NCBI GenBank assembly: GCA_051382295.1
Contig: JBBCAW010000062.1
Span: 32,001 to 96,000, forward strand
Direction: 5' to 3'
DNA: 64,000 bases
Source: Bdellovibrionota bacterium FG-1
GTDB lineage: Bacteria > Bdellovibrionota > UBA1018
The notes below the pieces were generated by a model that worked only from the letters and a program-made list of their open reading frames with translations, was not told where the DNA came from and did not search any database. Of this stretch, positions 31,272-36,743 are shown one piece after another (position 1 is the first letter of the stretch; every line of letters starts with the position of its first letter). Made by a program: the position numbers and the translations under genes.

Positions 31272-32297
31272 ATGGGCATCTGGAAAAATGGATTGGGAAT
31301 CGCAGCAGTTTCACTGGGCCTTTTGATGGGGCTAAACGCTCATGCGGGCGTAGGGACAAGTGGCGGGGGTGCCGTCGCGGTTTGTCGAGATGCAGCTGGA
31401 CATATTCAATCGGCAGAATTACTAGATCTGTACGAGGGCAAGGTCAGGTTTGGAATGACGATTGATCAGTCCGCAACCGACCCAAACCAGGGGTTTTTAC
31501 GGGCGGTCTCTCGCTTTGTAGACCAACCTTATTACGGAGCCTTGATCCGCGAATCCGCCAAAGACGTGCTCGAACGAATGGTGTTTTTGCCACCAGGAGT
31601 GGGACTTTCGCCGGGAGTGGACCTCGGAAACGACTACGGTGTGGTGATTCCAGATGGGTGTCGCCTCGAGTATGTGGGCTACTACGAATCGGATGGGACG
31701 CTCAAGGTTGCGCAGCCCGTTTACCGAGCCTTAAGTGCGACTGATCGCGCGGCTTTTGTGATCCACGAAGCGGTTTACAAAATCGCGAGAGAATACCTCG
31801 GCCAAACCGATTCGAGCCATTCACGGAAATTTACGGCGGCCCTTTTTGCGGGGAATAATTCGGAGGGGGATCTGATTCATTTGGCGCAGGAGGTGTTTCC
31901 GATTCAAGAAGGTGATTCTCTCATTGTTCTTCCCAAAAACCTTTCTCATTCAATTGAGGTGATCCAAACCCCACAAGACAGCCAGGTTCTAATACACTAC
32001 AGTCTGGACTGTTTCGCGGATACTAAAGCCACCGAATTAACCCCATTAGAAAGTACGGATTGGGTAGGTAAAGGAAAGAATAAGTTAACCCTCAATCCGA
32101 CCCAACAATGCCGACGGATCGAATTTAGGCTCTATGCGAAAGAGATGGGTTATCACTCTGTCGCTTATAATTTTCAGGTCTTTTATGGGGGAAACTTGAT
32201 CGATATCGGCGAAGTAGCTGCCAATCTTTCGACCTATGCCCACGTCATCCGTTTCGCCACCAACGTTCAAGTCCCCGCCATCCCAACCCTGCCATAG
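31272..32297 (+). CDS. Secreted hypothetical protein with N-terminal GGG motif
   Basis: Signal peptide ending AHA, mature start GVGTSGGG, LLDLYEG, IHEAVY; GGGGAG SD before ATG 31272. Confidence 0.85.
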   Translation: MGIWKNGLGIAAVSLGLLMGLNAHAGVGTSGGGAVAVCRDAAGHIQSAELLDLYEGKVRFGMTIDQSATDPNQGFLRAVSRFVDQPYYGALIRESAKDVLERMVFLPPGVGLSPGVDLGNDYGVVIPDGCRLEYVGYYESDGTLKVAQPVYRALSATDRAAFVIHEAVYKIAREYLGQTDSSHSRKFTAALFAGNNSEGDLIHLAQEVFPIQEGDSLIVLPKNLSHSIEVIQTPQDSQVLIHYSLDCFADTKATELTPLESTDWVGKGKNKLTLNPTQQCRRIEFRLYAKEMGYHSVAYNFQVFYGGNLIDIGEVAANLSTYAHVIRFATNVQVPAIPTLP

Positions 32298-32372
32298 GGA
32301 TCACCCAACCGAAGCGCGTCCTCCACCATGAGGGCTCCGGGTTGACTAGCACGCTGTACCCGCGAACCTCCC

Positions 32373-32510
32373 CTAGCTTCGGTCTAAGTGACTGGAAACG
32401 AAATCGATAAGAAAAACCAGAAGTTTCCAGATCAGTAAAAATAGTGCGGATCTGAACTTCAGTTTTTCATACCGACGCCGAGAAGAATAACATGTTCTTT
32501 TATTCTTCAT
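32373..32510 (-). CDS. 45-aa basic/hydrophobic peptide, candidate type I toxin (MKNKRTCYSSRRRYEKLKFRSALFLLIWKLLVFLIDFVSSHLDRS)
   Basis: Hand-translated. AGAGGTG SD 4 nt before ATG; the frame is conserved in all three repeats. Confidence 0.75.
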   Translation of the reverse strand: MKNKRTCYSSRRRYEKLKFRSALFLLIWKLLVFLIDFVSSHLDRS

Positions 32511-32513
32511 AAG

Positions 32514-32553
32514 GCACCTCTCTTTCTATCAGGAAGGGAGGTGTTTTCCTTTT
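32514..32553 (+). terminator. Terminator-like hairpin antisense to the peptide RBS (R1; identical at 34421-34460 and 34874-34913)
   Basis: CACCTCTCTTTCT-ATC-AGGAAGGGAGGTG 13-bp stem with two G-U pairs on the + strand, followed by TTTTCCTTTT. Confidence 0.65.
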
Positions 32554-32587
32554 CACGCGCGCCTCGGTTGGGCTGGGTGGATCCTAA

Positions 32588-32603
32588 AGCAAGGTCAGTG
32601 CCG
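32588..32603 (-). promoter_or_regulatory. Sigma-54 promoter of repeat R1
   Basis: Minus strand CGGCAC-TGACC-TTGCT; predicted +1 near 32577, the edge of the conserved core. Confidence 0.72.
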
Positions 32604-32937
32604 GAAAAAGATGCAAAAAATGGCGATTTTTGAGCAAGATCTGTTCGAATTTCGGATCAAAGTGGGGAATCCGGACTTCATTACTGAAACTTCAGTAGGC
32701 AGTGCTCATCACCGCCGCTGCGGCTCACTATTACCCACATGAGGAGTTTGCGCATTTGTCACTTCGAGATTCGGGAGTCCCAGATCGTTTCGTGAACGTT
32801 TTAAATGCACAAGCACCTGCAATGGGTTAACAAACTCACTTAAAACCTGAAACGTTTCCTCCTGTCCACTTACCAAGGGTGAGCTAAGCGCCTAATCATT
32901 CAATAACTATTTGTTTTAATAATGATTTACATACCTA

Positions 32938-32966
32938 TTGCACCATACAATATTGTATCATACTAT
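32938..32966 (+). promoter_or_regulatory. Sigma-70-type promoter with palindromic operator
   Basis: TTGCAC-17 bp-TACTAT. The spacer contains the perfect 14-bp palindrome ATACAATATTGTAT (32945-32958). Confidence 0.7.
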
Positions 32967-32973
32967 ATATCTC

Positions 32974-33510
32974 ATGGACGTTCATACAACTCTCAATCAG
33001 TTCGATGAATACCTCGCACAAAGAGGACAAGCCTTTGAAGCCGTTGTCATTGGTGGCGCTGCCCTCATCGTCATGGGGATCATCAGCCGGGATACGATTG
33101 ACGTAGATTGCCTTGATCCAAAAATTCCAGATGAAATTCTGAAACATGCAGCAAATTTTAGAACATCCGCTCCCAATCTTAGACTCCATGAAAAATGGAT
33201 CAACAATGGTCCAGATTCTCTAATTCGAGACTTACCCCATGATTGGCGAACCAGGCTCGTTCCAATTTTTAAGGGAGAATCACTTCATCTTCTTACCTTA
33301 GGTCGACTGGACCTCCTAAAAACAAAACTCTTTGCCTTTTGTGATCGTGATCAAGACCTGCAAGATTGTATGGCATTTAAACCTACTCAAAAAGAACTAG
33401 ACTCCTGCATAGATTGGGTTTCACAGCGAGATGGAAACCCAAACTGGCCCGAAAATGTTCGCCGCCATTTTGAGATCCTCAAAAAGAGACTAGGTCATGA
33501 TCAAACCTAA
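32974..33510 (+). CDS. DUF6036-like nucleotidyltransferase-fold protein
   Basis: VIGGAAL...SRDTIDVD (GG..A / T.D.D NTase signature), DLLKTKL..F.DRDQD..D. ATG 32974 is preferred over the TTG inside the promoter. Confidence 0.8.
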   Translation: MDVHTTLNQFDEYLAQRGQAFEAVVIGGAALIVMGIISRDTIDVDCLDPKIPDEILKHAANFRTSAPNLRLHEKWINNGPDSLIRDLPHDWRTRLVPIFKGESLHLLTLGRLDLLKTKLFAFCDRDQDLQDCMAFKPTQKELDSCIDWVSQRDGNPNWPENVRRHFEILKKRLGHDQT

Positions 33511-34180
33511 CCATGACCTTTCACTCAATCAAAAACTTGCCTCAATCGGCTTTCGAATCAATTATGATTCGCTCGGGTTGAAGTTAAAAAATCTTTCGTT
33601 ACTAGAAAATGCCGACCTTGAAGAAACCCTCATTCACGCAGCCTTTGAAGCAAAAACTGATTTTAGAACTCTATCCATTCTCTTAAGCTGGATTACCGTG
33701 CACGCCGATTACGTGATTGTTGAGAAATTTTTAAAAAAAATAAAATTATTTGAAAAGATCCATGGGGTAAACCGCGTTCTTGATCTCATGGCCGCGCACG
33801 CCGTAATAAACGGCAGCCATAAATGGAAAAAAGCCATCCGAACGCATGTGAAACGTCCCGAGTTTCCAGTCGACCCCGAATTACTTAAAACTTCAATTGA
33901 ATTTCAAGGGGCCGATGATACACTCAAGAAATTTGGAATTTTAATTCCGAAAAAACTCCTCCGAATTCGAACCAGCGATGTTCTACAGCCAGCAGAACTT
34001 TCCACCATTAACCCCCAATATCGCAACCGGCTTCTTTTTGGCGCTTCCTGGCGCTCCGACATTATTACAGCCATTGAGGCTGGAATAAAAAACCCCAATC
34101 AGATCTCCAAAATGCTGGGCTGCTCCTATGAGCCCGCCTATCGCATCTTCAAAGATTACCGAGCGGCACATGGAATCTAA
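33497..34180 (+). CDS. Hypothetical protein with C-terminal HTH, partner of the nucleotidyltransferase
   Basis: Overlaps the upstream gene by 14 bp; C-terminal NPNQISKMLGCSYEPAYRI is HTH-like. Confidence 0.75.
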   Translation: MIKPNHDLSLNQKLASIGFRINYDSLGLKLKNLSLLENADLEETLIHAAFEAKTDFRTLSILLSWITVHADYVIVEKFLKKIKLFEKIHGVNRVLDLMAAHAVINGSHKWKKAIRTHVKRPEFPVDPELLKTSIEFQGADDTLKKFGILIPKKLLRIRTSDVLQPAELSTINPQYRNRLLFGASWRSDIITAIEAGIKNPNQISKMLGCSYEPAYRIFKDYRAAHGI

Positions 34181-34279
34181 AACAACAACTTTTTTGTAGT
34201 TTTAAAATCACCCAACCGAGCCGCGTCCTCCGCCATGAGGGCTCCGGGTTGACTAACACGCTGTACCCGCGAACCTCCC

Positions 34280-34417
34280 CTAGCTTTGGTCTAAGTGGCT
34301 GGAAACGAAATCGATAAGAAAAACCAGAAGTTTGCAGATCAGTAAAAATAGTGCGGATCTGAACTTCAGCTTTTCATACCGATGCCGAGAAGAATAATAG
34401 TACTTCTTATTCTTCAT
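34280..34417 (-). CDS. 45-aa peptide, candidate type I toxin (MKNKKYYYSSRHRYEKLKFRSALFLLICKLLVFLIDFVSSHLDQS)
   Basis: Hand-translated; same SD. Outside the loop it has two synonymous changes versus R1 (AAA/AAG, AGT/AGC) and three missense changes. Confidence 0.75.
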   Translation of the reverse strand: MKNKKYYYSSRHRYEKLKFRSALFLLICKLLVFLIDFVSSHLDQS

Positions 34418-34494
34418 AAGGCACCTCTCTTTCTATCAGGAAGGGAGGTGTTTTCCTTTTCACGCGCGCCTCGGTTGGGCTGGGCGTATCTCAA

Positions 34495-34510
34495 AGCAAA
34501 GTCAGTGCCA
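34495..34510 (-). promoter_or_regulatory. Sigma-54 promoter of repeat R2
   Basis: Minus strand TGGCAC-TGACT-TTGCT, a full consensus match; predicted +1 near 34484. Confidence 0.78.
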
Positions 34511-34729
34511 TGAAAAGGCGCAAAAATCGGCGATTTTCAAGCAAAAGCTGTTCAGACTTCGGATCACGACGGGGAATCCGGACTTCATTGCTGAAACTTC
34601 AATAGGCAGCGCTGATCACCGCCGCTGCGGCGCTAGGGTTTTGATCACTATCTAAAATCACCCAACCGAGCCGCGTCCTCCGCCATGAGGGCTCCGGGTT
34701 GACTAACACGCTGTACCCGCGAACCTCCC

Positions 34730-34870
34730 CTAGCTTTGGTCTAAGTGGCTGGAAACGAAATCGATAAGAAAAACCAGAAGTTTGCAGATCAGTAAAAATA
34801 GTGCGGATCTGAACTTCAGCTTTTCATACCGATGCCGAGAAGAATAGTACTTGGACTTCTTATTCTTCAT
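34730..34870 (-). CDS. 46-aa peptide, candidate type I toxin (MKNKKSKYYSSRHRYEKLKFRSALFLLICKLLVFLIDFVSSHLDQS)
   Basis: Hand-translated. The only length difference among the cores is +3 nt, which preserves the frame. Confidence 0.75.
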   Translation of the reverse strand: MKNKKSKYYSSRHRYEKLKFRSALFLLICKLLVFLIDFVSSHLDQS

Positions 34871-34947
34871 AAGGCACCTCTCTTTCTATCAGGAAGGGAG
34901 GTGTTTTCCTTTTCACGCGCGCCTCGGTTGGGCTGGGCGGATCCCAA

Positions 34948-34963
34948 AGCAAAGTCGGTGCCG
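34948..34963 (-). promoter_or_regulatory. Sigma-54 promoter of repeat R3
   Basis: Minus strand CGGCAC-CGACT-TTGCT; predicted +1 near 34937. Confidence 0.72.
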
Positions 34964-35101
34964 TAAAATATGCCAAAGACAGGCAAATTTCCGGCGAGAG
35001 CTGTTCAGAATTCGGATCGGAGTGGGGAATCCGGACTTCATTGCTGAAACCTCGATAGCCGGCTCTACTCACCACCACTGCGGCTCACTATGACCCACCT
35101 A

Positions 35102-35544: not shown

Positions 35545-36375
35545 ATGAAAACCCACATTCGAAACCCCCTCAAACCCAAAGCGCTTTCCAAAAAGCTTCT
35601 CCTTTCGGTTCAATTCAAAAACGTTGAAGCCTCATCGAGTGGCTGGCTTGGGGATTTTGATAAATACACGTTCAAAGACCAAAACGGGTCCGAATACCTC
35701 ATTAAGGTCGGCCAGGACAAAGCTAAAAACCTTCCCGAAGTTGAGTTTTTAAGTAATCAAATATCTAGCATCCTTGGAGTCGAAGTCGCGGATTTTGGTC
35801 TATGGACCGTCGATGGAAAAAAAGCGTTTGCAACCAAGGATTTTCTTAAAAATAATCCGAAAATCCCAGAAACCGCCGGCCTCATCCATTTTAAACGCTA
35901 TTTCAAAACCAGCGGTCGCTGGGCCTGCGAAGACATCCTCGACCTCTTAAAAAAACAATCGAGCAGGTCAGCGCACGATATTCGACAATTCATCCGCCTG
36001 ACCTTGGTCGACGCCCTTATCGGCAACACCGACCGCCATGCCTATAATTTAGCCTTTATCCACGAAGACAGTCATCTTTACCTGAGTCCCATTTATGACA
36101 CCGTCAGCGTTTTCGTGGCCGTCGATCGAGACCCATACGAGGATTTTATTGACACCTGCAAAATCGGCACAAAAGATCAGGATACGGCGAGATTCGAAGA
36201 CTATCTAACAGAGTTTAAACGGCTAGGGTTCGCAAAGGAGGTCACGGTCGTCTTAACGGCCATGACGTCCAAAAAAAATAAAATTTTTGCCTTGATTCAA
36301 AAGTCAAAACTTCCCCTCATCAAAAAAGAGTACTGGTGCGACCGAATCAATAAAACAATCAAGAGCCTCAAATGA
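35545..36375 (+). CDS. HipA-family kinase domain protein (HipT-like)
   Basis: YLIK, E.L, DALIGNTDRHAYN, LSPIYD kinase motifs. Confidence 0.88.
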   Translation: MKTHIRNPLKPKALSKKLLLSVQFKNVEASSSGWLGDFDKYTFKDQNGSEYLIKVGQDKAKNLPEVEFLSNQISSILGVEVADFGLWTVDGKKAFATKDFLKNNPKIPETAGLIHFKRYFKTSGRWACEDILDLLKKQSSRSAHDIRQFIRLTLVDALIGNTDRHAYNLAFIHEDSHLYLSPIYDTVSVFVAVDRDPYEDFIDTCKIGTKDQDTARFEDYLTEFKRLGFAKEVTVVLTAMTSKKNKIFALIQKSKLPLIKKEYWCDRINKTIKSLK

Positions 36376-36743
36376 AAAAAATTCAGGTCACCCTTGAGAC
36401 CCAACTTAAGAAAAAGATCGTCGGATTTTTATATCGGCGACGAGCCGCATGGATATTCGAATACGACCCGTCGTGGATAAATAGCGGCGTTAATATTGAC
36501 CCCCAATTCGAAAAGAAACCAGGACCCCAACCTTTTAAAGAATTGCCGGAGTTTTTTTCAGACAGAATCCCGCCACTGGGGTCTCAGATGAGAGGCGCCT
36601 ACGGAAAAGCATGGAAACTTAATCACTCGGAGCATGACGAAATGTCACTTCTAGTTACCGTCGGCCATCGGGGACCGACGAACTATGTCTTTTACCCCAT
36701 CGGGTTCACCCCAGGACTTTGGGCAGAGCTGGAAAAACGCTAA
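36372..36743 (+). CDS. HipA N-terminal (Couple_hipA/HipS-like) protein
   Basis: VGFL....WIFEYDPSW, LPEFFSDRIP; ATGA overlap with the kinase gene. Confidence 0.8.
   Translation: MKKIQVTLETQLKKKIVGFLYRRRAAWIFEYDPSWINSGVNIDPQFEKKPGPQPFKELPEFFSDRIPPLGSQMRGAYGKAWKLNHSEHDEMSLLVTVGHRGPTNYVFYPIGFTPGLWAELEKR

Follow-up and report, generated by a model that had tools for sequence, protein, structure and literature searches.

A multicopy candidate type I toxin-antitoxin family in one order of Bdellovibrionota, with predicted sigma54- and sigma28-type promoters

Three direct repeats in the genome of Bdellovibrionota bacterium FG-1 probably belong to a multicopy family of toxin-antitoxin (TA) modules of type I from one Bdellovibrionota order, which resembles aapA/IsoA and appears to be wired to two alternative sigma factors. 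The probability of this reading is estimated at about 75%. The repeats lie in a stretch of 64,000 nucleotides, referred to as the window, which covers positions 32,001 to 96,000 of contig JBBCAW010000062.1 from assembly GCA_051382295.1 (G000:C62:32001-96000 in the locus labels used here). The FG-1 assembly (G000) is 4.44 Mb long with a completeness of 97.7% and a contamination of 5.0%, and a few of the family copies could therefore originate from co-binned DNA. Comparison of the loci shows that the open reading frame (ORF), both promoter motifs with their positions, and the RNA helices are conserved, and that two loops are variable.

A preliminary description of the window reported three repeats, each with a minus-strand ORF of 45, 45, or 46 amino acids (aa) and a Shine-Dalgarno (SD) sequence AGAGGTG, and proposed that they form a type I TA-like family. 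The repeats and ORFs are present (Table 1). The repeats are 91% identical to copy 2 across ~425 nt, copies 2 and 3 are arranged in tandem, the SD sequence is located 5 nt ahead of the ATG in all three copies, and the insertion of 3 nt is the sole length difference in the repeat core. The SD hairpin and the complementary transcript ends were also found. Two synonymous substitutions had been offered as a sign of coding. That count has to be replaced, since copies 1 and 2 differ in nine codons, three of them synonymous and six non-synonymous; the evidence for coding is weak from the window copies alone but strong across the whole family. The plus-strand hairpin with a U-tract that overlaps the ribosome-binding site (RBS) is present in the window (z = -5.06 for 34397-34462). 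The U-tract of this opposite-strand terminator is a property of the window subfamily only: eight U among the first 10 nt past the stem occur in 5 of 51 loci, and the other 46 have 2-5 U.

An iterated peptide profile, applied to all six frames of the FG-1 genome, identified 28 matches. Twenty-five are intact ORFs of 43-53 aa distributed over 17 sites, with four clusters of three, and the remaining three are broken (a truncated copy, a copy that has lost an internal segment, and a 3' fragment). In the same bacterial family, 17 of 74 genomes contain 1-18 matches each, and in the phylum the profile matched 19 of 400 genomes, all within one order. Seventy-five database proteins, some of them FG-1's own, were matched in records of Bdellovibrionota or Oligoflexia, the best label being 'hypothetical'. 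Clustering at 50% left 58 family representatives. When one genome of each species was scanned with a DNA pattern, 41 matches resulted. The peptide is encoded by 29 of them; according to record titles, 26 of these are from Bdellovibrionota groups, two from Deltaproteobacteria, and one from a metagenome-assembled genome (MAG) of Rickettsiales. The member from the MAG titled Rickettsiales (L117) is on a 2.2-kb contig, and both misbinning and transfer are possible. In total 58 loci were collected, and a set of 51 was obtained by leaving out seven that were truncated, deleted, or had a 3' untranslated region (UTR) too long for extraction. Twenty-one loci found later were used as held-out loci.

The preliminary description did not recognize the family, and library searches matched it to none that is known. 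Rfam returned 0 matches for the window at the gathering score, and in gathering and E-value modes nothing relevant, only five weak unrelated matches with E-values of 0.14-1.7. Searches of Pfam, NCBIfam, and PHROGs with all 25 peptides gave scattered matches of one or two members each (E at least 0.03), PADLOC searched with one peptide gave no match, and the family profile matched 0 chains of the PDB at E<=10. In the ESM Atlas, unnamed clusters (0.83) and TisB (0.75) provided a weak lead that was not used.

Comparison of the family members indicates that the ORF encodes a small cationic and hydrophobic peptide under purifying selection. The proportion of synonymous differences exceeds that of non-synonymous differences in 21 of 21 disjoint pairs with less than 30% divergence, and the pooled ratio of non-synonymous to synonymous change (dN/dS) is 0.40. 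Across the 51 loci the peptides are 41-53 aa long. The Lys/Arg-rich N-terminal half and the hydrophobic helix, described previously for the window copies, hold family-wide: the net charge is +5 to +14, and 46 of the 51 peptides contain an 18-residue segment with a Kyte-Doolittle hydrophobicity of at least 1.5. The AlphaFold model of the copy 2 peptide is a single helix of residues 5-44 with a mean predicted local distance difference test score of 77.6. Homologues with a broken ORF, a kind of evidence that the preliminary description named as speaking against it, do occur, in 3 of the 28 FG-1 matches and 6 of the 21 held-out loci, but they are a minority set against clear purifying selection.

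The predicted mRNA is ~275 nt long, with an arm-to-arm span of 265-288 nt, and is closed by a helix of 14 bp between its 5' end and its 3' end. In the alignment of this helix 97% of cells are paired, and double changes occur at 10 of the 14 pairs. None of 500 shuffles equalled the pairing or covariation score of the two-helix structure, a test inflated by the kinship of the loci, and slid registers reached at most 47%. On the mRNA strand the end helix has 82 G-U compared to 3 A-C cells, which identifies the strand carrying the ORF as the one that folds. It was considered that the repeats might instead be DNA elements similar to miniature inverted-repeat transposable elements or repetitive extragenic palindromes, with the two arms as terminal inverted repeats and the ORF incidental. 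The many dispersed and tandem copies are bounded by an inverted repeat of 14-16 bp, and of the 19 copies that could be assessed, 13 are oriented toward a convergent gene's 3' end; both observations favor such elements. This explanation is largely refuted by the G-U bias of the arms, which is an RNA signature, by the dN/dS of 0.40, by the conserved promoter and upstream palindromes outside the arms, so that the inverted repeats do not bound the whole element, and by the conservation of the peptide in relatives in which a DNA-level search finds nothing (0 matches in 40 relatives).

A local hairpin occludes the SD sequence, which has an unpaired probability below 0.3 in 51 of 51 loci. A second hairpin over codons 2-10 is present in all 51 loci, with a mean of -6.2 kcal/mol against -2.3 kcal/mol in synonymous recodings, none of 200 of which was as stable. 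The motif GGGU-RCAGC in the loop of a 3'-UTR hairpin is nearly invariant across the family. A connection of this motif to flagellin leaders was rejected, since it was found in 1 of 59 regions compared to 23 of 3000 background regions; the one copy in a flagellin leader of FG-1 is not a general feature. The leader also contains a small hairpin with an ANGGAN hexaloop (window 34446-34462, minus strand; family alignment columns 24-37), which is 82% paired with double changes at three of four pairs. This hairpin resembles a CsrA site, a likeness that is ambiguous because its GGA can also pair immediately ahead of the start codon. The csrA gene of FG-1 is located ~1.1 kb from a divergent flagellin-N-domain gene on contig C7.

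The predicted mRNA is preceded by a putative sigma54-type promoter, which was scored against the sigma54 consensus in 56 loci (the 58 without two at contig ends). The signature GG-N10-GC is present in 50 of the 56, and a score of at least 8/10 is reached in 43 of the 56 compared to 49 of 2000 random windows. In 52 of the 56 loci the box is 13-16 nt ahead of the 5' arm, a spacing that places the mRNA start site at the end helix. Held-out loci, six of which have broken ORFs, contain the box in 14 of 21 cases. The FG-1 genome encodes rpoN and has 25 strong matches to sigma54 activator domains. Farther upstream, a palindrome-like 15-mer clusters 54 and 74 nt from the box, with a score of at least 9/12 in 33 of 52 loci compared to 96 of 1500 background windows, and in 9 of 20 held-out loci. 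It is plausible that this palindrome is an activator site.

Outside the family, FG-1 has a sizeable sigma54 regulon with a related upstream palindrome of its own, GTCTAA-N3-TTAGAC, which scores at least 10/12 at 25 of 132 strong non-family sites compared to 7 of 3000 random windows, with the consensus taken from a few of the sites scored. Example sites are C12:28804 and C4:61398 on the minus strand and C123:11298 on the plus strand. Of 19 ORFs checked downstream of non-family sites, 15 are without a Pfam match. The idea that the family shares its upstream palindrome with these promoters is unsupported: the palindromes differ, and 0 of 16 family sites reach 10/12 for GTCTAA-N3-TTAGAC. Locus L114 (G000:C85:1-260, minus strand) has a 10/10 sigma54 box resembling that of the window copies and an upstream palindrome, and the gene that it drives is cut by the contig end. 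An unrelated 90-aa ORF with no Pfam match at L109 (G000:C14:7409-7818) is preceded by a perfect palindrome of the family type and by a sigma54 box, next to a type ISP restriction-modification gene.

A motif of the sigma28/FliA type lies on the antisense strand within the ORF, where it is encoded by the codons around an invariant Arg and the residues K-L-K. The motif scores at least 11/16 in one register in all 58 loci, and at least 12/16 in 56 of the 58 compared to 22 of 500 random windows. None of 300 synonymous recodings reached the mean score, and in 51 of 51 loci a T precedes the Arg codon, whichever of six amino acids is encoded there. The FliA motif mapped in B. bacteriovorus is TTAAG-N16-CCGATA, and excerpts of the study report it for 92 of the 140 promoters of the attack phase, of which three belong to small RNAs (PMC3627812). 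At a threshold of at least 9/11, this mapped motif occurs on the antisense strand of 53 of the 58 loci, on the sense strand of one of the 58, and in 23 of 1000 random windows. The spacer is 15 nt in 56 of the 58 loci, one nucleotide short of the published spacer, and 15-nt spacers are also present in 21 of 29 scoring flagellin promoters from 59 regions examined in the same bacterial family. FG-1 has a fliA gene, and flagellin-domain genes are present in all 75 genomes of the bacterial family. In B. bacteriovorus fliA could not be deleted, according to an excerpt of PMC5430801. A sigma70 antisense promoter predicted by a scan at 34371-34398 was set aside, since the region has 6 sites against 3.8 expected by chance and the fit of sigma28 is far better.

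The position of the sigma28-type promoter predicts an antisense RNA of ~60-90 nt that would begin near codon 7 and extend across the start codon and the SD sequence. In the window the predicted RNA is ~64 nt long and folds into a hairpin with a U-tract, preceded by an unpaired tail of 21 nt. In 42 of 51 loci the antisense strand forms the more stable version of the SD stem, which has 31 A-C compared to 12 G-U cells; this provides independent support for an antisense transcript. Fourteen close pairs of loci differ by 22.5% in the loop region of codons 4-8 and by 25.5% in the SD loop, compared to 1-2% in the 5' stems and ~7% in the remainder of the ORF. The 3-nt insertion is located in the first of these hypervariable loops, in the codon 4-8 region. 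This pattern parallels IsoA, whose specificity works through loops, as described in part of PMC5416894.

The same architecture could belong to an antisense-regulated membrane regulator that is not toxic, a pulse generator in which sigma54 is followed by sigma28 to tune a flagellar, pilus, or respiratory complex during the life cycle. Both promoters are of types used in staged motility programmes, and the activator that sigma54 requires would be out of the ordinary in a simple addiction module. This alternative is nevertheless unlikely, because the family was not found in 57 of the 74 same-family genomes, all of which have flagellin-domain genes, and because the diverged paralogues, as many as 25 and each with its own recognition loops, the two tight translational locks, and the common decayed copies speak against it. 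The uneven number of copies, which ranges from zero to 18 matches among relatives that without exception carry flagellin-domain genes, was counted in favor of the TA reading.

In the TA mechanism that we infer, comprising transcription, translation, toxicity at the membrane, and an activator, sigma54 RNA polymerase would transcribe the ~275-nt mRNA, probably with an enhancer-binding activator bound at the palindromes ~54 and 74 nt upstream. With its ends paired in the 14-bp helix and its very strong SD sequence folded away, the full-length message would be stable and silent. When the antisense RNA is missing, the peptide of 41-53 aa would enter and damage the inner membrane, so that the cell is arrested or killed. 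The promoter in the conserved Arg and K-L-K codons would provide that RNA, covering codons 1-7, the start codon, and the SD hairpin, and its 5' tail and hairpin loop would meet the two hypervariable mRNA loops, so that each copy may be neutralized by its own antitoxin. A peptide with a charge of +5 to +14 and one long helix might alternatively be aimed at other cells, prey or competitors, and remain silent until a sigma54 signal arrives; the phylum includes predators, and some type I peptides act from outside (excerpts of PMC8309996). Such an outward action is highly improbable: no export or immunity gene is conserved as a neighbor across 18 loci, and a cis antisense RNA shields the producer only.

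The family conforms to the sequence-level properties described for type I TA loci, which have mRNAs of 150-400 nt and proteins of 20-60 aa according to part of PMC8594479: both size ranges include the predicted span and the peptide lengths, a hydrophobic alpha-helical segment is present (46 of 51 loci; helix 5-44), and the SD sequence is sequestered in cis in 51 of 51 loci together with a covarying long-distance 5'-3' helix. Such loci also have a cis antisense RNA of 60-200 nt, for which the family shows a conserved candidate promoter and an antisense-tuned hairpin, with a U-tail in only 5 of 51 loci. The type I TA-like assignment made in the preliminary description is supported, as every sequence-level hallmark that could be tested holds across 51-58 diverged loci. 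The two promoters, the size of the family, and the putative hypervariable recognition loops are additions to it.

The closest parallel is aapA/IsoA of Helicobacter and Campylobacter, which, in the parts of PMC5416894 and PMC6733600 that cover it, has multicopy chromosomal loci, an mRNA of ~250 nt with paired ends, an antitoxin promoter within the toxin ORF, an antisense RNA over the translation start, loop-based copy specificity, and decayed copies. The two differ in peptide (41-53 aa with no PDB match and no consistent Pfam or NCBIfam match in profile searches, compared to 30 aa for AapA), in phylum, and in promoters, which are of the TATAAT-type -10 box in the described aapA/IsoA loci and of predicted sigma54 and sigma28 types in the family. 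In excerpts on aapA, a long-range fold hides the SD sequence and 3' trimming frees it, whereas in the family a local hairpin hides it and trimming is ineffective in silico. The enterobacterial hok/Sok and ldr/Rdl systems share with the family tandem or dispersed repeats and a long-range 5'-3' fold; library searches gave no sequence match to them, no leader ORF was established in the family, and its predicted antisense RNA covers the RBS and first codons of the toxin itself. Sok, a short antisense RNA, consists of an unpaired 5' tail and a single terminator hairpin, which resembles the predicted RNA of the family. HokB has a positive N-terminal part, as the family peptide does (excerpt of PMC8309996). 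The antisense promoter fits the motif of the B. bacteriovorus FliA attack-phase regulon, whereas the peptide family was found in one order only, and excerpts of PMC3627812 mention no antitoxin role.

Literature searches, with T1TAdb and the supplementary candidate tables of PMC2887945 outside their scope, listed no type I system from Bdellovibrionota, nor any whose promoters are of the sigma54 or FliA type. PMC2887945 does not mention Bdellovibrio in its main text, and a term search of a 2025 review of TA expression cues found neither RpoN nor FliA. According to excerpts of the review PMC8309996, membrane-associated type I toxins had been described only in Proteobacteria and Firmicutes.

Several observations weigh against a type I module with this control. 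The loci are related by descent, so all locus counts overstate independence. Six of the 56 loci have a degenerate sigma54 box, though rpoN is present in all five genomes checked, and the consensus of the upstream palindrome was drawn from the same loci that it scores. Because the peptide profile rewards the residues that encode the sigma28 motif, the universality of the motif is partly built in. Since a clear U-tract is confined to 5 of the 51 loci, the 3' end of the antisense RNA is uncertain elsewhere. Folding models do not reproduce the AapA-type activation step: the RBS remains closed after deletion of the 3' arm (median 19.0 compared to 19.8 kcal/mol) and after trimming of 20-70 nt from the 3' end (9.4-11.7 compared to 10.6 kcal/mol; 17 of 51 loci). 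Only 5' cuts into the anti-SD opened it, and activation by 3' trimming is unsupported by these models. The Lys/Arg cluster of the peptide is N-terminal, whereas it is C-terminal in most type I toxins (excerpt of PMC8309996). Searches of plasmids and phages by tblastn with one peptide each found no member; a single IMG/VR match was rejected since it lies in frame inside a long unrelated ORF, and a later IMG/VR search was empty.

The TA-like surroundings noted in the preliminary description are real at the window copies, but many other copies lie amid housekeeping genes. Between copies 1 and 2 (window 32974-34180, plus strand), a DUF6036 nucleotidyltransferase gene is followed by a gene for a 227-aa protein with a weak C-terminal helix-turn-helix (HTH). 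It is possible that the DUF6036 and HTH-like genes are a TA-like pair, for which PADLOC gave no match. Copy 3 is followed (window 35545-36743, plus strand) by a HipA_C kinase gene, which matches PADLOC PDC-M03A, and then by a separate HipA N-terminal gene. Neighbors at some family loci include PIN, AbiEi, nucleotidyltransferase, and GNAT genes. Two broken family copies at L017 (G000:C9:1-1900) adjoin a PDC-M05A/B candidate defence pair.

Table 1. Positions of the three modules and their predicted elements, in window coordinates.
Feature	Position	Strand	Basis
Copy 1, whole module	32300..32724	-	repeat comparison
Copy 1, peptide ORF, 45 aa	32373..32510	-	ORF, family profile, selection test
Copy 1, 3' arm of 5'-3' helix, predicted mRNA 3' end	32303..32318	-	
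Copy 1, 5' arm of 5'-3' helix, predicted mRNA +1 ~32577	32558..32573	-	
Copy 1, sigma54-type -24/-12 promoter, score 9/10	32589..32603	-	
Copy 1, two candidate upstream palindromes, 54 and 73 nt upstream of -24 box	32643..32676	.	family-derived consensus
Copy 1, sigma28/FliA-type antisense promoter within ORF	32458..32484	+	
Copy 1, predicted antisense RNA: single-stranded 5' tail, hairpin, U-tract	32490..32553	+	predicted
Copy 1, SD/anti-SD hairpin: predicted mRNA lock and plus-strand terminator stem	32515..32543	.	
Copy 2, whole module	34207..34640	-	repeat comparison
Copy 2, peptide ORF, 45 aa; predicted single helix, residues 5-44	34280..34417	-	
Copy 2, 3' arm of 5'-3' helix	34210..34225	-	
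Copy 2, conserved 3'-UTR loop motif GGGU-RCAGC	34260..34268	-	
Copy 2, sigma28/FliA-type antisense promoter within ORF	34365..34391	+	
Copy 2, predicted antisense RNA, ~64 nt	34397..34460	+	predicted
Copy 2, SD/anti-SD hairpin	34422..34450	.	
Copy 2, 5' arm of 5'-3' helix, predicted mRNA +1 ~34484	34465..34480	-	
Copy 2, sigma54-type promoter, score 10/10	34496..34510	-	
Copy 2, candidate upstream palindrome, score 8/12	34550..34564	.	
Copy 3, whole module	34657..35084	-	repeat comparison
Copy 3, peptide ORF, 46 aa	34730..34870	-	
Copy 3, 3' arm of 5'-3' helix	34660..34675	-	
Copy 3, sigma28/FliA-type antisense promoter	34815..34841	+	
Copy 3, predicted antisense RNA, ~67 nt; the additional 3 nt are in its 5' tail	34847..34913	+	predicted
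Copy 3, SD/anti-SD hairpin	34875..34903	.	
Copy 3, 5' arm of 5'-3' helix	34918..34933	-	
Copy 3, sigma54-type promoter, score 9/10	34949..34963	-	
Copy 3, two candidate upstream palindromes, 54 and 73 nt upstream of -24 box	35003..35036	.	family-derived consensus

A more tentative proposal, for which the odds are below even, is that the TA family acts as a life-cycle checkpoint, or as a selfish element addicted to the phase switch of its host, with ~25 mutually insulated copies per genome. Toxin mRNA would be loaded in a sigma54 stage and cleared only once sigma28/FliA, the swimming-phase sigma factor of Bdellovibrio, fires the antisense promoter, and cells that enter or leave the FliA state off schedule would be arrested or killed. 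The coupling to a life cycle is an extrapolation.

The analysis adds to Bdellovibrionota a large, well-defined candidate type I family that reaches 25 copies in a genome. Its predicted control logic is unusual, with the toxin mRNA transcribed from a sigma54-type promoter and the antitoxin from a sigma28-type promoter within the codons of the toxin. The 25 paralogues with private loops may represent a natural set of orthogonal antisense pairs, and with the family it could be tested directly if type I systems of the chromosome act as timed developmental devices rather than as stress or junk modules.

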